Below, one piece after another: positions 1 to 12,050 of a DNA stretch of 12,443 nt. The first letter of the stretch is position 1. Each line of letters opens with the position of its first letter. Source of the DNA: an uncultured Nitrososphaeraceae archaeon. Its GTDB lineage: Archaea > Thermoproteota > Nitrososphaeria > Nitrososphaerales > Nitrososphaeraceae. Under the pieces are notes generated by a model, which was given only the letters and a program-made list of their open reading frames with translations, searched no databases and was not told where the DNA came from. A program made the translations under genes and the position numbers. Where the stretch lies: NCBI GenBank assembly GCA_963765895.1, contig CAVXZB010000007.1:1-12443 (forward strand), given 5' to 3'.

Positions 1-163
1 ATCTAGTATAATTATCCCGGAAATAGTGTTATGATTGGATATGCGGCATGCCAGATTATAAACACTATCAAAAATGGTGCATCAGGTATAGACGGGAGTT
101 TTCGTAGACGGATATACAGTATGTATGTATGTCTATCATGAGGCGCGCACATTATACCTCTAG
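1..163 (+). repeat. Dispersed non-coding repeat, copy A (may extend left of the window)
   Basis: 1-80 aligns without gaps to 6426-6505 at 61/80 identity (counted by hand). A second box, CATGAGGCGCGCACATTATACCTCTAG (137-163), sits at the same offset as in copy B. Confidence 0.85.
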
Positions 164-537
164 TTTGAATTATATTAAGTGCAATTACACTCGGATACTT
201 TAGTAATCAATTCATTAATCATCTTTTCATGCTGCAATACTAAGAGCATAGATAATGATTCACCGGGATAGTTTTCGCCTTTGGAGTTAACAGCTCTGAT
301 GTAGTCTTTATTTTGTCCACATTCAGAAAGCATCTTACCAAATAGAAGTGCATTTTCTTCTCAGAGCATATTCAAAGTCTTTCTGTGATTTGATCTCTTT
401 AGCTAGGATACCAACGTTGCCATTCTCATTTTGTTCATTTTGGGACACTCTATTATCTTGAACGTACATTCTTTTTAACTACAGAGCCTTTCGGGAACTG
501 AGAACGCATAAATGGCAGTCCTAGATTCCACGGTCAC

Positions 538-933
538 ATGGCTCTAGGAGATTTAGCATTCGAAGAAACTGGAAAGTTTGCAGGAATAAGGGCACTCCCC
601 GACGGAAAGGTGGAAGCGACATATCAGGGAACTGGCAAATTGTTCGGTGTAGACTATTCATCTATCTATACCGGCGTCGCAAGCCCGCATGGAGGAACCT
701 TGATTGCAGAGTTCAATGGAATCTGCACAACCAAAGATGGGGACACTGTTGGTGTGTGGGCTCATGGAAGGGGGCGACCTACCGGAAGTGGCCTAAAGGC
801 GAGCTGGCGAGGTGGAGTTATCTGGCAGGCTTCCTCGCCGCAATTTGCAAGGTTGAATAGCGTGCCAGGAGTGTGGGAGTTGGACATTGACGAAGGAGGT
901 AACTTCCATTTGAAGGTTTGGGAATGGAAGTAG
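538..933 (+). CDS. Hypothetical protein (131 aa, Gly-rich, probably mostly beta)
   Basis: Clean ATG-TAG ORF with natural composition, visibly higher GC than its flanks, followed by a pyrimidine/T-rich tract. Resembles an uncharacterised family I recall from Nitrososphaerales and Actinobacteria. Confidence 0.85.
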   Translation: MALGDLAFEETGKFAGIRALPDGKVEATYQGTGKLFGVDYSSIYTGVASPHGGTLIAEFNGICTTKDGDTVGVWAHGRGRPTGSGLKASWRGGVIWQASSPQFARLNSVPGVWELDIDEGGNFHLKVWEWK

Positions 934-960
934 GGTTCCCGACACGAAGCTTAGCTAGCC

Positions 961-988
961 GTTTCCTCTTCTCTCATTTTCTTTCTTG
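961..988 (+). terminator. Possible archaeal pyrimidine-rich terminator
   Basis: GTTTCCTCTTCTCTCATTTTCTTTCTTG about 30 bp after the 933 stop. Confidence 0.35.
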
Positions 989-1182
989 TAGGAGGCGGAC
1001 ATTCCATTAGTAATTGCTGCCACCATAATAATTACCATTGTTACACTACACTTGTGACAAACCTGGTCCACTCAAACGTCCACTCTGTCCACTCGTATAA
1101 ATGAACTGAAGTCCATAACCTCTAATAATTCTTAATAGAAAATAGTTGGGAGCAATTTCCTTTGGTATTTCTTATTCTCTGC

Positions 1183-1674
1183 CTAAGCTGATACCACCAT
1201 CTTCTTTTTACGTCGACGCTCCTCTACACTCTTTTCATATTGAATCTGCTGTCGTTCCCGCTTTTGGCCTGTATACTCTTCATGTTTTTGACTTTTTTCT
1301 ATAAAAGTAGCATCTTTATTGAGACGTTTTTCAGTTTCTTCTTTTTCCAAAATATTTTTTGGTTCTGACGGAGAATTGTCAACGTAGTGTTTGTAACGCC
1401 TTTCGACCTCGTAATTATTCCCCTGAAGCACCTTTTCTATTGCATTATCCAGAGATTTCTTAATTCGTTCTTCGAGCTTGTCTGTTTCAAGGCATTGCGG
1501 ATAAGTAGCTAGCAAGTATTCAAATTGTTTCATGTATTCTATTACTTTATCACGATATTCTTCCTTGGTAGGCTTGTGATTTTTTGTTATCTTGAACCAT
1601 GTGGTTGCACATTGAGCAGGATACGCTTTCGCGAGTTCTTCAATTACACGATCCATTTCAAAATAGTCTAGCAT
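1183..1674 (-). CDS. Hypothetical protein (163 aa; helical N-terminal domain, charged C-terminal tail)
   Basis: Long ORF with an AGGAG Shine-Dalgarno-like motif upstream (complement of CTCCT at 1684-1688). The N-terminus resembles conserved thaumarchaeal hypotheticals. Confidence 0.8.
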   Translation of the reverse strand: MLDYFEMDRVIEELAKAYPAQCATTWFKITKNHKPTKEEYRDKVIEYMKQFEYLLATYPQCLETDKLEERIKKSLDNAIEKVLQGNNYEVERRYKHYVDNSPSEPKNILEKEETEKRLNKDATFIEKSQKHEEYTGQKRERQQIQYEKSVEERRRKKKMVVSA

Positions 1675-2167
1675 ACAAATTAGCTCCTACCTGAAAGGAT
1701 TAGAAATATATCTTTGTTTTGCAATCATGGTTATAGCTGCTAACTTGAAGCTGATATTATCGTCTTGTAAAGGCTGTTTATTACATTCCATTAATTACCA
1801 TATGAGGATTACATGTTTATAATTTAATCTATTGTTTATTTGTTTGTTCTAATTGGATATCTGAATAATTATTATAAAAAGTATTATATTTATGAAGATA
1901 TTCAAATTACTGATTCAGTCTTAAACGAGTCAGGTTTTAAAGTTCTCGTTATGGCGATTTTGGTTATCGATTCCGCGGGACAGTATGATGTTTTACAGGT
2001 TCATGATCTTTTTGTGAAGATAACGAAGGATGATATCTTCTGATTGGTAGTTTATCATAAAGGTCATAATGCGATATCTGAATGCGTCTTAGGTCTCCTA
2101 TTCTAACGCTGGCTAGATTAGCTAATAACTGCATAGCTTCAAGATATCCATAATATATAAGCGGCAC

Positions 2168-2295
2168 GATGTTAAAATAATACAAAGATGGGACAGTCAA
2201 AGGCCTGCAATAAACTATCTATTGCGCGATTTTAGAAGATGGCTCATAAATAAAAAGTAATGCAGAGATTGACTAATGGTAGAAGGGGGGCGCGC
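2168..2295 (+). pseudogene. Internal fragment of a paralog of the AEP primase/PriX-like gene at 9445-10466
   Basis: Translates DVKIIQRWDSQRPAINYLLRDFRRWLINKK*, versus IMQRWDGQRPAINYLLRDFRMWLIDEK at ~10028-10109. Both share ATAAACTATCTATTGCGCGATTT exactly. Confidence 0.9.
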
Positions 2296-2312
2296 AGATC
2301 ACGGATATGATG
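2289..2312 (+). repeat. Partial degenerate GGCGCGC box of the dispersed repeat
   Basis: GGCGCGC-AGATCACGGATATGATG versus GGCGCGCCAGATTATAAATATTATG (10573-10597). 12 of 17 positions match after the core, and 4 of the 5 mismatches are transitions. Confidence 0.5.
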
Positions 2313-2398
2313 TGACTCAATATCCTGGATGGTGTCCGGGTTTTAAAAGTGGGTACGCCGCTGAGTGGGCAATTCTAGAGGTCGGTAAATAAGTAGCA

Positions 2399-2686
2399 CT
2401 AGCTCGCTACTGTCTGAGCTTCTACATCAGCGACGGCTTTTACTACAGGGTCGCTGCTCGTAGCACCTGATACACTGGGTTTATTAAGGTAATAATTCTT
2501 AATATCGTCTTTATAGTCTTTGGCGTTTTTGTCTGATTTCTCCACGAGGCAGGTTGTTGCGTCTCCCTCGCTAGCAGTAGTAGGGGCCACGTCCTTAATA
2601 GGTTTATTGAGCGCCTTCGCGACAGGGGGTATGGCATTTAAAGCCTGCACTAATTGGTTAAATACAGACTCAGGTCTTCCTTGCAT
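2399..2686 (-). CDS. Hypothetical protein (95 aa)
   Basis: ATG-started ORF with natural Ala/Lys/Asp composition and AT-rich TATA-like sequence upstream. No family recognised. Confidence 0.65.
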   Translation of the reverse strand: MQGRPESVFNQLVQALNAIPPVAKALNKPIKDVAPTTASEGDATTCLVEKSDKNAKDYKDDIKNYYLNKPSVSGATSSDPVVKAVADVEAQTVAS

Positions 2687-2987
2687 ATCTTAACCAATGT
2701 CTTTAAGTCTAAATCACTGTAGTGCACACGTCCATACCACAAATATATCTAAAAATTGGTGGATAGAAAGACTATTGCAATTGTAACGAATTTGAAAAGG
2801 CAGTTGACTATAATGATATTCGATATTATCGACCTGAGGACGATAGGTTTAACGCAGTAAAAAAGCAGGTTGGTACCTACATTCTTTGAGACATCAGCGT
2901 CCCACTGCTAGTCTGGAGCCTTTCAAGTATAGTCCATGGTGTACAAAGAAACTAAAACAACTAAAGAGTGAATAATTATCCATACCA

Positions 2988-2996
2988 CTTATATCG
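2988..2996 (+). promoter_or_regulatory. Putative TATA box of hicBA
   Basis: CTTATATCG about 30-38 bp upstream of the hicB ATG. An alternative is TTAAAATTATA at 3007-3017. Confidence 0.35.
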
Positions 2997-3025
2997 ACCA
3001 TAGCCCTTAAAATTATACACGAATA

Positions 3026-3229
3026 ATGCAGCCATACCATATGCTATTTAAGAAGGCCGAAGAGGGAGGCTTTACAGGAAAGTGCTTAGAGTTACCTGGA
3101 GCCATTTCTGAGGGAGAAACCATGGAAGAACTTAGAGCGAACATGATAGAAGCAATCTTGTTAGTCCAAGAGTCTATCAAGGAAGAGGCAGAACTAAGGC
3201 ATGAGCAGATAACCGAAGTAATTGTCTAA
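3026..3229 (+). CDS. hicB: Type II TA antitoxin, HicB family (short, no C-terminal DNA-binding domain)
   Basis: Motif EEGGFTGKCLELPGAISEGETMEELRANMIEAI is typical of the HicB partial RNase H fold. Adjacent to hicA. Confidence 0.92.
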   Translation: MQPYHMLFKKAEEGGFTGKCLELPGAISEGETMEELRANMIEAILLVQESIKEEAELRHEQITEVIV

Positions 3230-3252
3230 CAAAGTAATTATTGACTGACTAA

Positions 3253-3468
3253 TTGAGTCTACGAAATCATAACTGGCGTGAGGTAGTTAGGGTTCAAAGT
3301 CGTCATGGTTTTGATATGGAAAGGCAGAGTGGTAGCCATATCCTACTAAAATACGTAGACGGAAGAAGGATAACGGTACCAAAACACGACACACTAAAAC
3401 AGGGTACGTTAAGGGCTATTCTTGACCAGGCTGATATTTCAAGAGAGCAGTTTCTTAGCGAACTGTAG
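3253..3468 (+). CDS. hicA: Type II TA toxin, HicA family mRNA interferase
   Basis: GF..RQSGSH..L....R.ITVPKH..LKQGTLRAIL.QA.IS.E.F motif with the catalytic GSH His intact. TTG start 23 bp after hicB. Confidence 0.92.
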   Translation: MSLRNHNWREVVRVQSRHGFDMERQSGSHILLKYVDGRRITVPKHDTLKQGTLRAILDQADISREQFLSEL

Positions 3469-3680
3469 CGTAGAACTAGGTTCAGTGTCGCAGATGGCAC
3501 ATGCGGTGTTTACAACGAACTAACTGACACTATTATTCCTTTTCTATATTTTTTATGTTAAAGAGGCTTTACCTCCAGTAAGTAGGCGTTATTACGTTAT
3601 TGCTGGATTGTAATCCGCATCTGGCAAGTTCTCGTCACTAAGATAACCAAATAATGGAACAAGCCATAATTTGTGTCCAG

Positions 3681-3692
3681 TTAATTATATAT
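3681..3692 (+). promoter_or_regulatory. Putative TATA box for the small secreted-peptide gene
   Basis: TTAATTATATAT about 22-33 bp upstream of ATG 3714, consistent with a leaderless archaeal transcript. Confidence 0.45.
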
Positions 3693-3713
3693 TTTCCTTA
3701 GGGTATGTTACCA

Positions 3714-3916
3714 ATGAATAAAATATTTTATGCAGTAGGCTTGGCTTTGCTAATTGTAGGAACTGCCGCAGCGACTACAATCTTGACAATTCAGCCAGCG
3801 CAGGCACAGCACCATAAATGTAGCTTGCCGAACGGGGACCATTTCCAGGCCAAGGAGACCAAGGTTGTCCCCCGGGCTTAATTGATAACCCAGGCAGCGA
3901 ACACGCAGGCAACTAA
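3714..3916 (+). CDS. Small secreted peptide (not in the ORF track): 55 aa as written (3714-3881), or 67 aa if one G is added at GGGG 3834-3837
   Basis: MNKIFYAVGLALLIVGTAAATTILTIQPAQA is a signal peptide with an AxA cleavage site. The shifted frame GPFPGQGDQGCPPGLIDNPGSEHAGN* stops at 3916, directly before a poly-T run. Confidence 0.7.
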
Positions 3917-3917
3917 C

Positions 3918-3982
3918 TTTTTTTTATTTTTATTTATAAACTAAACAAAATCGCATATTTTTCATTTATATAGTAAAAAAAA
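3918..3982. terminator. Convergent poly-T terminator region
   Basis: T-runs at 3918-3935 on the + strand follow the peptide gene. An A-run at 3975-3982 (T-run on the - strand) follows the minus-strand small-gene cluster. Confidence 0.5.
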
Positions 3983-4006
3983 TCTCTGGTGATTTCACGA
4001 GGGAAT

Positions 4007-4222
4007 TTATGAACTCCTTTTTAGTTTCTTAGTACACCGCGGACAGAACAGAAAGGGCGCCAACGACACTATAGGCCTATCAAATTGTGCATCATTGCAT
4101 ATACCAACCGTCTTTTGTTATAGCGTTATAGGAATCCTCCTTAGCCTTGTAGTAACAGATATATCATATTCCACGCTTTTTTTAATTTTGCGACAACAAT
4201 ATCCTCCAGCCAATATAGTCAT
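4007..4222 (-). pseudogene. Small Cys-rich (CC...CPxC) putative Zn-binding protein with two apparent frameshifts
   Basis: Segments read MTILAGGYCCRKIKKSVEY / YICYYKAKEDSYNAITKDGWYMQ / DAQFDRPIVSLAPFLFCPRCTKKLKRSS*. The ATG overlaps the upstream stop (TAATG). Confidence 0.5.
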
Positions 4223-4398
4223 TACGAATTATCTATGACGTTTTTGCTGCCACTGCCATCGCTCTCGCTGTTATTGCTTTTCATTTTTTTAGTTTTGTTA
4301 TGCGTATAGACAATAGTCCAGATAGTTGTTACAAACTACGGCAACATTATCAGTATTGCCGCTACGGGTGTAACTTCAGTTGGAACGACTACGACCAT
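4222..4398 (-). pseudogene. Small single-TM protein with an in-frame TAG at 4336-4338
   Basis: MVVVVPTEVTPVAAILIMLP*FVTTIWTIVYTHNKTKKMKSNNSESDGSGSKNVIDNS*. The hydrophobic run spans the stop, and the final TAA overlaps the next ATG. Confidence 0.45.
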
Positions 4399-4405
4399 GA
4401 TTTAA

Positions 4406-4570
4406 TTATCTCTCTTCAGTAACTTCTCCTTCTTCAACAATGAGGTTTGTTATCTCTGAACCATCGACATGTCTTACTATGATATTGTATAAGTGGTCCA
4501 TGCCTTGATCCCTATTCTCGCACTCGAAAGTTCCAGATATCTTGAAACTATAACGCTTTCTTTCTGTCAT
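4406..4570 (-). CDS. Small hypothetical protein (54 aa, not in the ORF track)
   Basis: MTERKRYSFKISGTFECENRDQGMDHLYNIIVRHVDGSEITNLIVEEGEVTEER* has a beta-alpha-beta-like pattern and ends 7 nt before the next ATG. Confidence 0.6.
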   Translation of the reverse strand: MTERKRYSFKISGTFECENRDQGMDHLYNIIVRHVDGSEITNLIVEEGEVTEER

Positions 4571-4595
4571 TGAATTCCACGTCTCAAGTAACTAA

Positions 4596-4822
4596 TCATT
4601 TATCCTTTTTTATCTCATCCGTGGCGTGCTGAAAGATTTTAGCCATTGATGTATTACTACTACTACTGCTGCCGTTACTAGTTGGGGGGGTGTGTCGTAA
4701 ATGTATCATTTCCAAGTGCCTTCACATTTACAAAGCGAGGCAAGTGAGGCAGATCCTGCCAGTACGATTGTAACTACAAGGATAGTCGCCAGAATAACGA
4801 TGTCATTTCTCTCTTTACCTCA
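4596..4822 (-). pseudogene. Degraded secreted or membrane-anchored Ser/Thr-rich protein
   Basis: Hydrophobic segment RNDIVILATILVVTIVLAGSASLAS, followed in shifted frames by PTSNGSSSSSNTSMAKIFQHATDEIKKDK*. No intact start. Confidence 0.35.
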
Positions 4823-4931
4823 TATCACTAGCATAAATGGATACCTTAAGATTCCTAATGTGTTGTTTAGACCGTGAGTCGGCGTTTTTATACGACCTTG
4901 CGCCTTTACTCATTAAAGTAGAGCCCCTTAA

Positions 4932-5219
4932 TTAGGTCAAATTTGATTCATACACCCTTGGGCCCCAGAAGATATAGCAATAAGAGGCTAGATGATTTGG
5001 ATAACAAGTAATTATATGAATAAAGTCCTTTTTTTGATGATTGGACGTTCTTTTTGCTAATGGTGCTTCTTGGTAAACACTTGTTGTAGGTGGATTAGGT
5101 CTTTTGCAGTTCAGTAACTGATCGATTGTCAAGATTTGGATCTTTGGATACTTGCGTTTCCAGACAGATGATGCATAACGATCTGTTATTTTAGGTTCCT
5201 TTATCATTTCACTTGTCAT
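4932..5219 (-). pseudogene. C-terminal remnant of a DNA methyltransferase / Mrr-like restriction endonuclease fusion
   Basis: T.EM.KE....RY....W...YPKIQILTIDQLL...RP..P....YQEAP matches, from my recall, the C-terminal tail of N4/N6-MTase-Mrr fusions. No upstream catalytic domains are present. Confidence 0.65.
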
Positions 5220-5336
5220 CTCTTATCTGTGCTTCTCTATGATTGATCCCATGATTGATGATGTTCCATTGGTTGCCTATCCTATTCCATTAAATTAATT
5301 AGAACCTAATATAGTATATAGATAATCAAGAAGCAT

Positions 5337-5573
5337 CTAGTGTGAGCGATAATGATGATGGTTGTCGCTAGTTCTCCTCTTATCAAAAGAAGCAACATTC
5401 CGTGGCGGAGGAGGACTATCATTCTCATGCCCTGAATGTGTTCTAATATGATTCCAGTAGTCTGAATTTGTGATCGCAGTTTTGCATACAGGACAATTGG
5501 CATAACCACATTTATGATGTCCTATAAAGTTTGGATGAAACGTAATGTTACATTTATCACATTTATTTTGCAT
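5337..5573 (-). CDS. Small tandem zinc-finger protein (78 aa)
   Basis: CDKC...HHKC followed by a C2H2-like CPVC-x11-HIRTH, and a His-rich C-terminus. Confidence 0.65.
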   Translation of the reverse strand: MQNKCDKCNITFHPNFIGHHKCGYANCPVCKTAITNSDYWNHIRTHSGHENDSPPPPRNVASFDKRRTSDNHHHYRSH

Positions 5574-5619
5574 GTCTATTTTATCACTTTTGTCGTTGAT
5601 AGTAGTATGTGCATATCGA

Positions 5620-5797
5620 TAATTAGGATGTATCGAACGATTGCAGTTATATCAAGCTGGATAAGACGAAGCTCGAATTACTACATGAAGTGAGTATAGT
5701 TATAGTTAGTTCACATGCATTCCGGATATACATAGACTAATCTATAATACCTCATGTATATCTCAGTCATGGGCGCACGCCAAATAGTGTGTTCTAT
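5620..5797 (+). repeat. Degenerate copy D of the dispersed repeat (3' part best conserved)
   Basis: CGGATATACA (5723-5732) is shared with copy A (109-118). CATGGGCGCACGCCAAATAGTGTGTTCTAT (5768-5797) resembles GATGAGGCGCGCCAAATAATCCATTCTAT (6563-6591). The 5' limit is uncertain. Confidence 0.55.
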
Positions 5798-5909
5798 AGA
5801 TAAGGATTGAGACTTGATGATTTTTTCCAGCTCTAAACATGAGCCACTTTATTAACCAATTTCAGCAAGTTTCAAATTTCATAGCTGTCCCAGCTCTTGA
5901 CTTGATTGA

Positions 5910-6170
5910 CTTGAATTTGTTGTACCGACTAAAGATAGAAATAATGAAGATATTGTAAATGCTCAGGGAGTGAAAGGTATGATGGCGAAGGGATCCGAGT
6001 TATAGATGGAGCTAGTCTCATCACAGTCAGTAGAAGCAGCTTCTACCATCGAAATTAGGGCATTTAGAGGAAAGAAGAATGTATTCAAAGATGATATACT
6101 TGTAAGTAATGCTGACGCACAAAGACTAATGAGATTCATCAAGGAAAACTTCTCCCTCACCTCCCCATGA
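5910..6170 (+). pseudogene. Hypothetical protein interrupted by TAG at 6003-6005 (or a 54-aa ORF at 6006-6170)
   Basis: Frame reads LEFVVPTKDRNNEDIVNAQGVKGMMAKGSEL*MELVSSQSVEAASTIEIRAFRGKKNVFKDDILVSNADAQRLMRFIKENFSLTSP*, which is more protein-like than the antisense ORF 5963-6160. Confidence 0.45.
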
Positions 6171-6425
6171 AATTAGGCGGTTACTGAAGTTCTTCCCAGA
6201 AATCAAAAGTTTTAATCCCAATTATACGATCAAGTATAATATCAATTCTGCAAAAAGGATGGTTATACTTATCAATTATGATACCTTAATCCGATACTCG
6301 TGGTGAACTTAACATCTGTTGACTCCTTATTGATGATATCTATAGATAGTAGTGCTAGTCGATGCGAATCAACATATTAATTCCGTTAATATGCAACAAG
6401 TTTAACGCATTTGACTTTTTAACAT

Positions 6426-6597
6426 ATCCGATATAATTATCTCGGAAAAAGCGTTATAACCCGATAGGTGGGATGCTAGGTTTTAACCATTATCAAAAAT
6501 GCTGCCTACTAGATGTAGACTAACGTCCCAAGATGGTGATAGAATTTATATATGCCGTATATGATGAGGCGCGCCAAATAATCCATTCTATGAAAAA
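6426..6597 (+). repeat. Dispersed non-coding repeat, copy B
   Basis: ATCCGATATAA TTATCTCGGAA (arms 9/11 complementary), then AAAGCG TTATAACCCGAT ... ATGAGGCGCGCCAAATAAT. Colinear with copy A. Confidence 0.85.
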
Positions 6598-6709
6598 CCT
6601 TCATTATTTTCCCGTCATGTTCAGGGACTAGGTCTACTACTCTCAATAAAGATGAGATTACAAGAATGGCACGTATGCTAAACTAGTAGCAATCATACCT
6701 CGCGAAGTA

Positions 6710-7015
6710 TTACCTTAATTTTTTAACTGTACCTGATTTATGCATAATACTCTTACCTGGTTTTTGTATCTGAGGCGCTGGCTGTTGTTGAATGAGCATA
6801 TCTGCCTCCTCTCTTTTCTTTCTTTCTCTAAGCTTATCCTTATACTTCAAATTTCGTGGCCTTGTTCTTAGTCTATAGCCACAGCAAGGACACCACAATC
6901 CAACCCAGTTGATGAATATTTCACAAATTTGGCATCGCCTCTGTCCTAAAGCGTAACGGCCATAGCCAGCTGGTTTTTGTGCCTTGTGACGTATACATAT
7001 GCCTTTACAAGTCAT
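6710..7015 (-). CDS. Conserved thaumarchaeal Cys-rich zinc-finger protein
   Basis: MTCKGIC.RHKA.KP....RY..GQ.RCQICEIF..W.GLWCPCCGYRLRT.PRN, a pattern I recognise from Nitrososphaerota hypotheticals. Confidence 0.88.
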   Translation of the reverse strand: MTCKGICIRHKAQKPAGYGRYALGQRRCQICEIFINWVGLWCPCCGYRLRTRPRNLKYKDKLRERKKREEADMLIQQQPAPQIQKPGKSIMHKSGTVKKLR

Positions 7016-7239
7016 TTTGCAATCCTACTGACGATTAATTGACGTTTTACTGTTTACGTATTGTACTTGGCAGGAAAAGGCTAGTTGATGGAAACATATC
7101 TCATAATTTATTTTCTATATTTATCAAAATATTATTTGTTATTCTTTCTTTTAGTATAAAATGAATACATATGAGTACTGCATGTAATATTTCTTCCAAA
7201 TAGTTAATATATCGTAATGTACTCTATCTACGATAAAAA

Positions 7240-7719
7240 TTGGAAGAATATGACTTTGATGAAATGTGTCTGGTTGCTCTTGACATAAGCAAAGATGTAA
7301 AGGTTTGTGGCTGTTACAGATACTAACGGGAAACTACTCGCTGGAAAACAGTGTAAGGATGGTAATATCAATAACAGTCTAATCAAAACTAGACTTTTCC
7401 AATTATCTTCTGCAGAAGCAAAAGAGTATCGGCAACATAGTCTAAAGGCTTCAGCTACATTTTTGTCATTACAATACGAATTATCTTTTCTATACAAATT
7501 ACTTAGCAAGTACATTGAAGAGAATAAAAAGATGACATGCAACATTCAGATAGTAAAGAGCAAGATTCGGCTCATCAAGTCGGACTTGTACAATTCCATG
7601 GGTTACTAAAAATAGCTATAGCTTCGCTAACGGCTAGGAACGATAGATATCTTTGTATATATTTAGAGTCTGCCTCGTCAAATCAAGAGATAATTACAAA
7701 GATACGTAACGCTATGTAA
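7240..7719 (+). pseudogene. Frameshifted roadblock/profilin-like (DUF6659-like) thaumarchaeal protein
   Basis: TTG 7240 gives MEEYDFDEMCLVALDISKDV, then an extra A at ~7298-7300, then RFVAVTDTNGKLLAGK. Further shifts lead to the C-terminus KIAIASLTARNDRYLCIYLESASSNQEIITKIRNAM*. This joins track ORFs 7307-7609 and 7537-7719. Confidence 0.6.
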
Positions 7720-8054
7720 TCTTTCCATCATACAACACGGAATAAAAAAGTTGCATAAATATTGACGAGATCTTGAAGAAGACCAAGTTTATGTTCTGTG
7801 ATATGTTTAGTTTGCTTATTAAAGCCTCAATACTATACCAATTAAAATAATTTCTCTGATACATTGCCATAGTAACCTCTTCAGTCTGAGTTTGCCACTC
7901 AACTATAGATACAGATGAAAAATATCACTGTTAATTGAAGATATATATATAATAAATAATATGCAGATGGAATCCATATCCTGAGACAGATAAGGCGGTA
8001 CCATTCACTATAACTGAGGACTCAAAAATTGCAAATACAGAAAGAGTATCCGCA

Positions 8055-8468
8055 ATGTTGGTAATTCCTGAGAGTTGCTTTCCATATTCGGGGGTTTGGA
8101 TTGGTGGTATCAAAGATGGTGATAACCATTATCATTACCGGAGTCAGATAAGCGCGACACTTGACCATATATTTCTTATGTCGTATATTGAAAATGATGA
8201 CATGACCGATACTATGAGGGAGTTTAATCTAGTGTTTTGTCCAAAAGCATGTCTAGGATTATCAAGAATTGATAGGACCAGGCGAGCACAAATGCGACGT
8301 GTGAAAATGATAGCTCAACCAGATTTAATGCGACCTTATGTATTCATGGATATTAGAGCGTCGGATGTTGCACTGTCTAACTTAATAAATTATTCTGAGC
8401 GTATACCTGCAGAATTTATCCCAGATATAACCAAGTATTATGATACCTGTAGGAAACACTTTACGTAA
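8055..8468 (+). CDS. Hypothetical protein (137 aa; frame is open from 7956, so the 5' end may be damaged)
   Basis: ORF with plausible composition. The upstream in-frame stretch CRWNPYPETDKAVPFTITEDSKIANTERVSA has no ATG. Confidence 0.55.
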   Translation: MLVIPESCFPYSGVWIGGIKDGDNHYHYRSQISATLDHIFLMSYIENDDMTDTMREFNLVFCPKACLGLSRIDRTRRAQMRRVKMIAQPDLMRPYVFMDIRASDVALSNLINYSERIPAEFIPDITKYYDTCRKHFT

Positions 8469-8599
8469 ACGGATCGTGCTTGGCATGAATCACAATTTTC
8501 TGTTTTTGTGGATGGCGCACCTCCAAACGATCATCAAAGTTTTGCAAGTCCTGCTACCGGTTCGTAAACTTAAATTACTTCGCAAAGTGCTTTGAAATT

Positions 8600-9280
8600 A
8601 TGGGATATAATTCAGTTCTCAAAAACTCCTTTGAAATATATCATGCAATCTATTGTCTTCGTTCTCTAGGTCTATTTCCACATCATGATAGAGTAAAGTC
8701 ATGGGATACACATAAGATGGTTGATATAATTAAGCAATCAGACACAAGCGCTTTTGTACTAGATGTTGGATGTAATGGTTCTCCGATTTTGACCCTGCTA
8801 AGTAGACTTGGTTTCATAAACCTATATGGATGTGATTTGCTCCTAGAAGAAGGAATACCATCCACAGTCGAAATGTACAAGACATTTGATATTTCAATTC
8901 AAGATCTAGAAAAAACCGAATTTCAAAACAATACATTTGATTTCGTTACATCACTATCAGTCATCGAGCACGGTATTAATATTCAAAACTATTTTAAAGA
9001 AATGAATAGAATATTAAAAAAAGATGGATTACTTTTGACATCGACAGACTACTGGCCTGAGAAGATACCTAATCTAATAAATACGGATGTAAATCCTAAG
9101 AATTCGCCTGATAATATATTCAGCAGAAGAGAAATAGAGGAAGACGTAATTAGCATTGCAGAACAGAACGGTTTCCTTCTTACCGAACCAATAGATTTCA
9201 CGCATGGGGAAAAAGTTGTTCATTGGAATGCTACGTGCCTTGATTACACTTTCATATTCTTTGCACTAAGGAAGAATTAG
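8600..9280 (+). CDS. Class I SAM-dependent methyltransferase (Methyltransf_11-like)
   Basis: Motif I VLDVGCNGS, then GCD, FDFVTSLSVIEH and MNRILKKDGLLL. Confidence 0.9.
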   Translation: MGYNSVLKNSFEIYHAIYCLRSLGLFPHHDRVKSWDTHKMVDIIKQSDTSAFVLDVGCNGSPILTLLSRLGFINLYGCDLLLEEGIPSTVEMYKTFDISIQDLEKTEFQNNTFDFVTSLSVIEHGINIQNYFKEMNRILKKDGLLLTSTDYWPEKIPNLINTDVNPKNSPDNIFSRREIEEDVISIAEQNGFLLTEPIDFTHGEKVVHWNATCLDYTFIFFALRKN

Positions 9281-9444
9281 TTAGTATGTAAAGGCCTGTT
9301 ACAATTACCATGCACTAGAAATTGGTAGTCGGTTAAATCTATTGTGTGTGAAGAACAGGCATAAAACGTAGTATTAGACCCAAAGAATTTTGCAAATGCT
9401 AGCGAGACTTAAAGATTTTGTCCTACTAAATCGAGAAGAAAATT

Positions 9445-10466
9445 TTGACCCTTAGTAGTCAGGAATTAGAGCAGAACCTAAATTTCATGCTATCACATTT
9501 TCAGGAGCCCATTTTCCCAAGGAATATGATGACAGGATCTCTTGAATATCAGAAGGAAGTGTTCAACATAAAGGAAGTCCTTGCGTACTTTAAGGCATCA
9601 AACTATGAAGATTGTAGGATCAATGCCTATCCTTCATTTACTAAATACGATGGCATTAATAGAACTCCACCAACTTTTCTAATGATAGATACAGATCTAA
9701 AGGACTTTGTTTCGAAAGATAAACTTGATAGGGCGTTGATCAGAATCTTAGAAAATTGAAAGGAGTATACACTGCCATCCTACAGTATTATGGACTGGCA
9801 ACGGCTATCATATTTATCAACCTATGGCAGGTTTTATCCTAGAAGAGGAAGAGGTATATGCGAAATTTATAGACCCAAATGGAAGAGATCTCACCAGTAA
9901 ATTTATGCAGTTTGCAGAGGATTTTCTTACGAATAAAAAAGGAGATCGGCAACATAACCAGACTATAAATTCATGTTTAATTAGAATTCCGGGTACAATA
10001 AATTCAAAATGTGTGCAGATGGTTAAGAATCATGCAGCGATGGGATGGTCAAAGACCTGCGATAAACTATCTATTGCGCGATTTCAGAATGTGGCTCATA
10101 GATGAAAAGATGGAGCAGAGGCTAGCAAGTAGTAGGAAGGCGCGCACTAAGACCGCATATTCAAATACAATCTGGTGGATTGAAAAGTTACTACAAACTC
10201 CACTAAGTGACTATAGGAAATTTGCAGTGTGGTGCATCCTAGCACCCTACCTTATTAATATTAGAAAATGTTCTACCGATGACGCTTCTAAAATAATAAA
10301 GGATTGGCTCGATAGATGTAGCCAATTAAGGCGATTAGACTTTAATGCTTATCGCGTGATCAAATATAATGTTGATTCTGCAAAGAGGAATGGTTATCTA
10401 CCAAGAAGTATGGAGAAATTAAAGACAGAAAATACATACTTGTACAATCTGCTGGCTAAACTTTAG
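9445..10466 (+). pseudogene. Archaeo-eukaryotic primase (AEP) primase-polymerase with PriX-like helical C-terminus; two +1 frameshifts (~9750 and ~10027)
   Basis: Motif I LMIDTD (Asp codons 9688 and 9694), motif II WTGNGYHIY (9791-9817, upstream of the tracked ATG 9824), the conserved RIPGTINSK, and C-terminal WIEKLLQTPL.DYRK...W.ILAPYLINI. The three track ORFs join into about 339 aa. Confidence 0.85.
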
Positions 10467-10525
10467 ATAGAAAGCGAACTACTGTATTAGTAATTCGAAT
10501 CAGACTAAACCAGACAAGATATCAG

Positions 10526-10607
10526 ATCCGGCATAATTATATCGGAAAATGTGTCTTATAATACAGATGTGCGGCGCGCCAGATTATAAATATTATGGAA
10601 AAAACGC
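10526..10607 (+). repeat. Dispersed non-coding repeat, copy C (5' ~80 bp)
   Basis: ATCCGGCATAATTATATCGGAAAATGTGTCTTATAATACAGATGTGCGGCGCGCCAGATTATAAATATTATGGAAAAA. Shares TGCGGC..GCCAGATTATAAA with copy A. Lies about 60 bp after the primase stop. Confidence 0.85.
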
Positions 10608-10643
10608 TACGTCTAATGTATATGAGTTAATTTCACGCTTGAA

Positions 10644-10918: not shown

Positions 10919-11566
10919 TCAGTTTGCTGCTCGCCGTTCCTGCCACTCTGGCATTCTCCTAAATGCAATCACTTCTATTTTTTGCTGGGGTTTTCCTTGT
11001 TCCTCCTGCAGGTAGTGATCCATTGCCTCCTTGAGAATGGGAGCTCGGTCATAGTCTACGCCCCTCGACCTAATTATCTGGATCATGATCTCGATGCGCC
11101 TTTGTGCTTGCTGCTTTAGCAGATCGCAGTCTCCTTTAGGATCTCGCTTGAGCCAGCTCGGCCTGTCTGGAGCTGGCATCCAGCCTTCACGCCCTTTTTC
11201 TTTTAAATCTGTATCCATGACAGTCAGCACTTGATACATTTCCTCGATGGTTGGCCTTGGCTCGATGCTAAGAAATTGCTTGCCTATGTCAAGAGGCCAG
11301 CCTACCCAGAGGATTCTATCGCCATAGCTGCGACTCGTAGTGTAGTAGAAATTGGGAAGGTCTTTTATTCGTCTTCGCAGGCCCCTCTCTTTAGGCGATA
11401 TGGCCTTTGCCGCAGCTTCTGCCCATCCTCCGTTCCAGTTGGATCGCTTGCATTTGGCACAATAGTTGAGGATTGGTCCGTCCTTGCCGTTAAAGCGGTT
11501 GATCCACTTGTACCCGCACCATGTGCATTCATACTCTTTGGTTTGTATATTGTGTATTGGCGGCAT
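10919..11566 (-). CDS. Hypothetical protein with N-terminal Zn-ribbon (215 aa)
   Basis: ECTWCGYKW...P..YCAKCKRSNW is a CxxC..W..CxxC..W ribbon. Long ORF, visibly higher GC than its flanks. Confidence 0.8.
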   Translation of the reverse strand: MPPIHNIQTKEYECTWCGYKWINRFNGKDGPILNYCAKCKRSNWNGGWAEAAAKAISPKERGLRRRIKDLPNFYYTTSRSYGDRILWVGWPLDIGKQFLSIEPRPTIEEMYQVLTVMDTDLKEKGREGWMPAPDRPSWLKRDPKGDCDLLKQQAQRRIEIMIQIIRSRGVDYDRAPILKEAMDHYLQEEQGKPQQKIEVIAFRRMPEWQERRAAN

Positions 11567-12050
11567 TATCTATCTACTCATTTACTAATTGATGGACATT
11601 AAGAAATGTTAGATGAGGCTCGATTTTTCGGAATATTTCAGCTTTTTCTGAATCCTTTTTGCGCCAGTATGTAGAACCGGCATATCCTATAAAATATTTC
11701 GAGTAATTGGCGTAACCAATGTCTGATATCGTGGTCTTTACAAACCTTCTAAGTGAGTAGAATTCTGTCAGCCTATTGCCAACTTGTATGGTCAGATGAA
11801 GATGGGTTAATAATGATGACTGGAATATTATTACTGCTGTGTATAGTAAACGCACTTGTTCTGACTGAAGGAATTTATATATTAGTTAATATCAGAAGTA
11901 ACTGTATATAATCAAATATACAAAGAATTTTTGTATTAACTCATTATTTAAAAGTAATTTTTCTAATCAGTAATATTGTCTATGGCCTATTATTATACAA
12001 TTATAATACTGTGTTTTTACCAGAAAGAGTCATGTAACATCTGTATTTTG

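Follow-up and report, generated by a model that had tools for sequence, protein, structure and literature searches.

The stretch of DNA analysed here (the window) comprises 12,443 nucleotides (nt) from an uncultured Nitrososphaeraceae archaeon and corresponds to contig C7:1-12443 of a 4.91 Mb, 88-contig, 88%-complete genome (G000). It is punctuated by three copies (A, B and C) of a non-coding repeat, between which lie a toxin-antitoxin pair, a methyltransferase, a broken primase gene and several small open reading frames (ORFs), followed on the right by an integrase fragment (Table 1). This repeat marks the seams in a patchwork of old mobile DNA and is not a chromosomal dif site. With a probability of about one half, it is the protein-binding cis region, an origin of replication and/or a recombinase site, that ends a genus-specific family of integrative elements.

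Repeat copies in the window and in the genus

The preliminary description of the window, made from its sequence alone, had placed three clear copies on the plus strand, starting at 1, 6426 and 10526, and sequence reading, a repeat finder and a sequence-only model of the core, run over the whole window with filters off, agree on them. The core model returns exactly three copies, and its next match on the plus strand has an expectation value (E) of only 0.31. In addition, the motif ATAATTATNNCGGAAA, with at most one mismatch, occurs four times in the window, namely in the three copies and in the palindromic partner in copy B, against 0.03 occurrences expected by chance, and none of 200 shuffles reached four. 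Each copy bears the 20-bp palindrome described earlier, followed, as had been noted, by a TTAT stretch, a GC-rich box and a AGATTATAAA-like box, and all three indeed lie outside ORFs of at least 55 amino acids (aa) with any family support. A second GGCGCGC-like box about 100 nt further on, which had been claimed for A, B and a degenerate piece D, is present in A and B, and in D it comes down to a 23-nt resemblance. Piece D, at about 5620-5797, is no detectable copy, since it gives no match to a 286-position nhmmer profile of the repeat at E < 1e-3 and leaves the core model blank up to E 10; 5775-5797 alone resembles the right-hand box of copy B (23 nt, 78%). The piece proposed at 2289-2312 is not a copy either, as it has no core-model match and directly follows a fragment of a primase gene at 2176-2257. 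Copy B extends about 100 nt further left than first noted, and copy A is truncated by the contig start, its left part being visible in a twin contig (C52:19268-19472). The end of that contig (C52:19325-28987) is 99.7% identical to C7:1-9668, and further twin stretches occur in the assembly (C13/C44, C42/C60 and C26/C59, with 99.4-99.7% or 93-97% identity). Thus, the bin carries redundant or strain-variant contigs, and per-genome copy counts are somewhat inflated.

Table 1. Position, strand and basis of the features discussed in the window
Feature	Position	Strand	Basis or details
Repeat copy A	1-160	+	nhmmer 2-148 = profile 121-268; core model 2-91, E 4e-20
Parts of copy A		+	palindrome 2-21; first GC box 43-52; AGATTATAAA 53-62; second GC box 141-150
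Repeat copy B, near full length	6325-6584	+	nhmmer profile 8-284, E 6e-60; core model E 1e-25
Parts of copy B		+	left module 6325-6405; core 6407-6519; palindrome 6427-6446; right module end GGCGCGCC 6568-6575
Repeat copy C, primase-linked core form	10467-10634	+	nhmmer 10495-10634 = profile 90-222; core model 10495-10623, E 2e-25
Parts of copy C		+	palindrome 10527-10546; GGCGCGCC 10573-10580; AGATTATAAA 10581-10590
Piece D of the preliminary description, no detectable copy	5615-5797	+	repeat finder, nhmmer profile, core model
PrimPol-PriX primase gene in three frames (9445-9759, 9824-10105, 10011-10466)	9445-10466	+	PriX Pfam 3.8e-11 for 10011-10466
Stray fragment of a second primase, PriX residues 5-33	2171-2257	+	tblastn 76%
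Tyrosine integrase C-terminal fragment, about 1 kb right of copy C, convergent	11574-11855	-	by-eye alignment to 253-aa neighbour-cluster protein
215-aa ORF with N-terminal CxxC...CxxC, between integrase fragment and copy C, convergent with C	10919-11566	-	no Pfam or PHROG match
HicB-like/HicA toxin-antitoxin pair, cargo	3026-3468	+	HicA 3.3e-17; HicB-like, UPF0150 below cut-offs
S-adenosylmethionine-dependent methyltransferase, cargo	8600-9280	+	Methyltransf_11 9e-13
ORF without family, between A and B	538-933		
ORF without family, between A and B	1183-1674	-	
Small zinc-finger-like ORF, between A and B	5337-5573	-	
CxxC-rich ORF, between B and C	6710-7015	-	
ORF without family, between B and C	8055-8468		

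An iterated nhmmer search seeded with the first 100 nt of copies A, B and C gave 76, 85 and finally 88 matches in the genome, and the 286-position profile, built after the copies had been aligned with wide flanks, gave 116, of which 56 are near full length. The further copies anticipated in the preliminary description therefore exist, and the unit, of about 280 nt with a conserved core of about 130 nt within it, is larger than was noted there. In the alignment with wide flanks, conservation begins about 120 nt left of the palindrome. The unit consists of a left module with two short palindromes, the core, and a right module ending in GGCGCGCC and then AAAT. Within the core, a motif with TCGGA at its end occurs first in one or two direct copies, at a spacing of about 10 bp, and then as an inverted pair, which forms the 20-bp palindrome; AT-rich TATA-like stretches and one or more palindromic GC boxes follow. 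Motif blocks are conserved along the entire repeat, copies differ by 20-25%, and many copies are made up of the core alone; the partial copies have no common crossover point, and most proved to be diverged rather than cut. A connection of the AGATTATAAATAT box with a stretch of integrase gene at three paralogous loci was rejected, as only 15-17 nt are alike and the likeness stops at the flanks, and a relationship between the left module and the last coding part of the primase gene was discarded on account of a weak nhmmer alignment in L118. On contig C19 of the same genome (85774-86296, minus strand), a 16-nt motif resembling the GC box recurs 14 times at a strict 39-nt period, and this tandem repeat is possibly a 13-residue coding repeat.

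The repeat is genus-specific and hardly found elsewhere. BLAST with copy B gives matches in all six other genomes of the genus, whereas 34 genomes that represent 33 further genera of the family and order give none. The core model matches 12 of 101 family genomes, including the present one and all six sister genomes, in five of which it has at least 33 matches. Beyond the genus, its solid matches are confined to two assemblies (seven and two matches), both of which are 6% contaminated, so that bin contamination is possible, and three more genomes have one match each near E 1e-4. A scan of IMG/VR with the palindrome pattern gave no match, and a set of 68 soil metagenome contigs containing that pattern includes 59 that bear the repeat by profile (105 matches). 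Genome sizes are 3.4-4.9 Mb in the repeat-bearing genus versus 1.2-3.5 Mb in most of the family genomes compared. Moreover, the repeat breaks short-read assemblies: the window contig begins inside a copy, and contigs of sister genomes end at copies.

Integrative elements that carry the repeat

In intact elements of the sister genomes, a tyrosine integrase gene is followed by an ORF on the other strand, a large ORF of 630-850 aa, a PrimPol-PriX primase of about 350 aa and the repeat core. In the element L120 (genome G002), the integrase has 392 aa (Phage_integrase, 2e-10), the opposite-strand ORF 296 aa, the large ORF 851 aa and the primase 352 aa (PriX, 1.6e-11), and the core lies 9 nt past the primase stop. 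The same order from large ORF to primase to core is found in L122 and L118, at distances of 49 and about 45 nt, and in the window copy C lies 28 nt past the primase stop. The module recurs in L125 and L127, where the integrases measure 398 and 397 aa and the homology sets in 58 nt ahead of the integrase start codon, so that in these two and in L120 the repeat-bearing element itself encodes a tyrosine integrase. The junction between primase stop and copy is the same for window copy C, C48, L118, L120 and L122. The window primase is frameshifted and represents residues 17-348 of an intact 349-aa homologue, and the intact homologues in sister genomes are open frames of 330-385 aa without stops. 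Downstream of the module in L120 lie more units, each closed by a copy, the first of which opens with a 3' stump of the large ORF. The picture of isolated sites that depend on a recombinase purely in trans thus needs revision, because the native place of the repeat is the 3' flank of a replication operon in an integrase-bearing element.

Other repeats and elements were seen alongside. Just before the primase, the coding sequence of the large ORF contains, in its 3' part, a 9-nt unit with TGTCGCA at its end, repeated in runs (L120:8738-8982 and L125:8208-8307), which may encode a peptide repeat or represent iteron-like sites. A 37-nt intergenic motif occurs five times among the genes of one element (L127:5797-8875), with its copies at 64-84% to the reference. 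ORFs of 1395-1401 aa that match the N-terminal half of the large-ORF fragment were set aside, since they encode family-B DNA polymerases, belong to other elements and have no repeat near. This other type of element, found at L115:4642-10612 (G001:C49), L116 and L117, has a family-B DNA polymerase of 1395-1398 aa (1.4e-34) and then a 163-aa ORF, which in the L115 type precedes a 369-aa PriX-domain protein, with no repeat copy nearby.

Remnants of the repeat-bearing elements lie beside the copies in the present genome. Although positions within 3 kb of a copy make up only 10.9% of the genome, they include 19 of 22 loci with large-ORF fragments (18 upstream on the same strand), 14 of 22 with a PriX part and 8 of 12 with the middle part of the primase. 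The recurrent mobile-element families among the neighbours of the copies are primase, large ORF and integrase, and the ordinary accessory neighbours include a solute-binding protein, a patatin-like protein, a short-chain dehydrogenase and hydrolases, read from their sequences without a family search. A replication-gene remnant on the same strand ends at most 250 nt upstream of 24 of the 116 copies. All but one of these 24 remnants run to within 12 residues of the C-terminus, and 20 begin past residue 30, at positions scattered over 184-371 in the large-ORF fragment and 246-298 in the primase. Across seven genomes of the genus, the repeat-adjacent copies of this form of the large ORF are all fragments, the longest frame being 511 aa and most being below 230 aa. 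A link of the repeat to remnants of tyrosine-integrase and replication genes, to be expected if the copies clustered near integrases as had been suggested, is therefore supported by genome-wide proximity counts and by the 3' stumps.

Neither a fold nor a hallmark of transposition was detected in the repeat. An Rfam scan of the window gave no match up to E 1, no transfer RNA (tRNA) was found in it, and RNAalifold on 39 full-length copies gave no consensus structure on either strand. Copy B as RNA folds no better than its shuffles (z -1.2 and +0.2), and folding of the cores of B and C as single-stranded DNA (ssDNA) on both strands (z -1.3, -2.3, +1.3 and +1.4) yields no stable hairpin. Terminal inverted repeats (TIRs) are absent, the palindromes being all internal, and the search for target-site duplications (TSDs) over 3825 offset pairs reached at best 6 of 52 for 4-mers, 5 of 52 for 5-mers, 3 of 52 for 6-mers and 1 of 52 for 8-mers. 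No Y1 transposase or reverse transcriptase was matched in the 88%-complete genome, with controls positive in six and three reference genomes, respectively. Thus, without TIR, TSD, RNA or ssDNA fold or Rfam match, the repeat is not a miniature inverted-repeat transposable element (MITE), an attC site, a dif site or a structured RNA. The preliminary description had itself named a repeat without further copies, a decayed coding fragment and an ordinary MITE as outcomes that would speak against it; copies are many, and the core has no translated match. An IS200/IS605-derived palindrome-associated element was rejected for lack of a Y1_Tnp match and of stable hairpins, and tRNA-linked integration was rejected as well, since aragorn finds 23 tRNAs in the genome, two of them within 8 kb of a copy and none adjacent.

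Arrays, breakpoints and competing explanations

Adjacent copies within 20 kb of each other are co-oriented in 55 of 68 pairs, a pattern also seen in the soil contigs, and C48 and C25 have 12 and 11 copies, almost all of which share a strand. Together with the profile matches, these orientations and arrays uphold the initial picture of a dispersed, co-oriented, non-coding repeat between blocks of unrelated genes. With a crude ORF call, the gene upstream lies on the strand of the repeat in 32 of 56 cases and the gene downstream on the opposite strand in 39 of 55, and head-to-tail copies 42-63 nt apart occur. Most pairs of near-full copies (636 of 752) share the repeat alone; among the 116 pairs with homology over more than 150 nt beyond it, the extension is confined to the left flank in 97 and to the right flank in 10, and it covers both in 9. 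This dominance of left-flank sharing indicates that the repeat travels with the replication-gene side and that its right end is a junction. Pairs of high identity end sharply: several start at the first conserved palindrome of the left module, and the homology of one ends about 40 nt past the right-hand GC box. Moreover, 1132 of 2035 pairwise alignments begin at most 20 nt from one left boundary, about 20 copies have one derived layout, with a 3' stump of the large ORF and the left module, and a copy on C40 is chimeric between two other copies.

Comparison between strains and soil populations points to the same places. Soil populations share a block of 8.1 kb with five copies (C48:33855-41979), conserved at 95.7%, but differ in the DNA on either side of it. 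On the left, the break falls where a copy starts, 5 nt short of the stop codon of a primase stump; beyond the break on the right, C48 has an integrase gene and the soil contigs have a fragment of a different type of integrase. Window 4930-6063 recurs in four soil contigs (94.8%), where it runs straight into the first TCGGA motif of another copy; that copy continues as C64:61280-71762. In line with the proposal that rearrangements map to the repeat, 38 of 184 strain breakpoints lie at most 60 nt from a copy end, against 6.4% expected, a count that includes redundant loci (perhaps 8 distinct events near the ends) and comes from contigs picked for the repeat, which weakens it as support. Two copies in L125, 92% alike over 78 nt, flank a TIG-domain gene of 935 aa, and to the second of them a mid-gene primase fragment is fused at the palindrome centre. 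Logan contigs from four soil runs show loose ends of the repeat type at about 6334 and 10594, as well as joints between copies.

Short palindromes, phased direct repeats, block-wise conservation over 130-280 nt and the lack of a fold suggest that the repeat is double-stranded DNA bound by several proteins, and its fixed position after the last gene of a replication operon, within an element that encodes a tyrosine integrase, points to a cis-acting end region. In the explanation preferred here, proteins of the element itself would bind the repeat as double-stranded DNA, and the repeat would act as a replication origin, as a recombinase (att or resolution) site, or as both. An origin is plausible by analogy, because the minimal replicon of the Sulfolobus plasmid pRN1 is described as needing a 166-bp stretch immediately past its primase-helicase gene (Berkner et al. 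2014, PMC4234260). A recombinase site is also plausible, since the repeat has an inverted pair with direct motif copies, junction-like ends and co-oriented arrays, and integrase-bearing elements of archaea are known to accumulate at one site (Krupovic et al. 2019, PMC6563490). Integrations would recur at the same islands, and decay together with recombination at or near the repeat could then yield the more than 100 co-oriented copies, each closing one cargo unit, often with the 3' stump of a replication gene.

Several observations weigh against this explanation. Of the 42 integrase-like loci, no more than 10 have a copy within 3 kb, and only the 24 copies mentioned above retain a recognisable replication-gene remnant. 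The stumps are nearly all 3' ends, and random deletion or decay of whole elements predicts no such ladder. In some arrays, units of 0.5-2 kb contain one small gene each and every unit has the repeat, which is hard to derive from random decay of elements of 6-10 kb. The replication role of the large ORF is suggested by its position, as it has no sequence match in Pfam, PHROG or PDB and the Atlas gives weak leads only, to DUF3631- and Toprim-bearing clusters. Three well-preserved elements were searched for att cores, and no candidate direct repeats of at least 12 nt were found to be shared by their integrase and repeat sides. The search for empty sites within the genome gave two candidates, neither of them clean, and in the flanks of two copies in five sister genomes no empty site was readable, the contigs of the closest genome ending at the repeat. 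The circular junctions that the preliminary description had hoped for were not readable in the Logan contigs of the four soil runs, and none of the 68 soil contigs is circular. In addition, the origin of pRN1 is reported to be a 100-nt stem-loop (PMC4234260), whereas the repeat has no significant fold.

The single-gene units with a copy each and the 3'-anchored stumps fit the preferred explanation less well, so that two others are kept open. The first, which we regard as unlikely though worth retaining, supposes integron-like cassettes: the repeat would be the site where an integrase, in cis or in trans, inserts and excises circular cassettes with one copy each, from which co-oriented arrays would result. 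The co-orientation of neighbouring copies is as expected for such cassettes, and so are the five copies bounding units of 0.5-2 kb with one to three small unrelated genes, an array conserved in three soil contigs (L093, L105 and L108) and C48 with integrase fragments at its ends, the single cargo gene between two similar copies in L125, the attC-like movement of copies with their upstream flank and chimeric flanks such as that of the C40 copy. However, the genes between copies lie on either strand, breakpoints fall at several positions in and around the repeat without a common crossover, and the native context is a replication operon. No conserved platform of integrase and attI was seen at the array heads, on contigs that are short, although integrase genes or fragments stand at some ends. 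The identity of the five-copy array over 8.1 kb across soils also argues against a fast turnover, and the integron analogy drawn in the preliminary description fails at the structural level, as no attC-like single-strand hairpin was found. In a broader and similarly doubtful form, the repeat might be the active site of a gene-capture system undescribed in archaea, either integron-like with a double-stranded multi-motif site or the fixed end of a primase-dependent element, which may make 5'-truncated, head-to-tail copies that drag cargo along. If true, either form could explain much of the genome expansion in this genus of soil ammonia oxidisers.

The second explanation kept open, for which the chances seem poor, is a self-propagating non-autonomous element, in which the repeat and variable DNA upstream of it would be copied by an enzyme encoded elsewhere, in a one-ended or replicative manner that leaves 5'-truncated copies. 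The many copy pairs that share nothing but the repeat, the common left boundary of more than half of the alignments, the ladder of 3'-anchored stumps, the derived layout common to about 20 copies and the closely spaced head-to-tail copies would all follow from such a process. Nevertheless, neither TSDs nor TIRs accompany the copies, no pair of empty and filled sites was found, and the 88%-complete genome matches neither of the two enzymes searched for, Y1 transposase and reverse transcriptase.

A host regulatory module or small RNA gene, whose TATA-like boxes and T or A runs would serve as promoters, as a two-way terminator or in a short transcript, is improbable. It would account for the position of the copies, mostly between convergent genes according to the strand counts given above, for the TATA-like stretch about 15-25 nt upstream of each GC box and for runs of five T or A on both strands, but the window has no Rfam match and the repeat no conserved or stable fold. 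Furthermore, the restriction of the repeat to one genus and its tie to mobile-element genes fit a selfish origin better than a host regulon. Finally, the original reading as a chromosomal or plasmid dif-type Xer site, or as borders of pdif modules, is excluded by copy number and arrangement, because only the look of the palindrome, with arms ending in ATAA and starting with TTAT, speaks for it, whereas one site per replicon would be required instead of 116 per genome, the arms abut in a 20-bp palindrome without a separate 6-8-bp spacer (at best parsed 7-6-7), the sites are co-oriented rather than alternating, and the conserved unit measures 130-280 nt versus 28-30 nt.

Other genes of the window and related systems

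The remaining genes of the window are consistent with this history, since most of them have 80-96% paralogues on other contigs, which fits a mosaic of element remnants. The stray primase fragment at 2176-2257 duplicates positions 10028-10109 of the primase gene at 84%. The 253-aa protein of a neighbour cluster with whose C-terminal part the integrase fragment was aligned by eye has a Phage_integrase match of E 1.4e-5 (25.4 bits, below the cut-off of 27.1); the window ORF has no Pfam match of its own, and DNA 11581-11756 has 82-93% matches beside integrase matches on C38, C59, C18 and C32. The 215-aa ORF next to it has a single locus in the genome by tblastn. Small zinc-ribbon-like ORFs with paired CxxC motifs recur in the islands, three of them on the minus strand of the window (6710-7015, 5337-5573 and 10919-11566) and one at L035:244-564, and none has a Pfam or PHROG match. 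The stretch 2750-5774, which includes the HicAB pair, has an 89-91% match at C38:154523-157437, and its right end meets the 23-mer at 5775-5797.

The kinds of entity involved, that is, integrative plasmid-like elements, origin or att regions and arrays of integrated elements, are already known, and what is unusual is the high-copy, co-oriented and genus-wide spread of one cis region and the ladder of 3' stumps. In the literature searched, with PMC6563490 and PMC5862659 included, the repeat and its elements are undescribed, although supplementary tables of PMC6563490 may list such elements. The repeat provides a simple sequence marker for the seams of islands derived from mobile elements in a large-genome genus of soil Nitrososphaeraceae, and it defines a family of elements with an integrase, a PrimPol-PriX primase and a candidate origin or recombination site. 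Few cis-acting sites are known in archaeal mobile elements outside thermophiles and halophiles. If the arrays arise by site-specific capture, they would represent a new route of accessory-gene acquisition for ammonia-oxidising archaea, with a cargo that ranges over toxin-antitoxin pairs, methyltransferases, solute-binding proteins and dehydrogenases.

Some tyrosine-recombinase sites, such as lambda attP with its arm sites and the resolution site of the Tn4430 TnpI recombinase, combine a core inverted pair with accessory direct repeats. The repeat resembles them in having an inverted motif pair with one or two direct copies on one side, about one helical turn apart, in an element that encodes a tyrosine integrase. 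As a candidate site, it differs from them in that no att core repeats are found at the element ends and, in the best-kept elements, the integrase gene lies about 6 kb off, at the other end of the module. Integrons are reportedly present in archaea, as Ghaly and colleagues are said to have described in 2022. With attC sites and super-integrons, the repeat shares many co-oriented repeats between short blocks of unrelated genes and a tyrosine recombinase nearby, whereas it lacks the single-strand hairpin, its unit has two to four times the length of theirs, the genes occur in either orientation, and no constant intI/attI platform was seen on the short contigs.

Integrase-bearing archaeal elements are described as building arrays by re-using one site (Krupovic et al. 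2019, PMC6563490). The integrated elements of Thaumarchaeota presented there resemble the present ones in their integrase, their replication genes with a primase of the AEP type, their varied cargo and their arrays formed by site re-use. A dispersed conserved non-coding repeat or a PriX-fused primase is not mentioned in the available text of that work, in which the words 'PriX' and 'MITE' have 0 occurrences each. The plasmid pRN1, as far as it is portrayed in PMC4234260, differs, in addition to its stem-loop origin, in being a free plasmid with one site, whereas the repeat has more than 100 chromosomal copies in arrays. Both systems have in common a conserved non-coding region of 100-200 nt directly 3' of a replication gene, in a small archaeal element with a primase of the PrimPol type.

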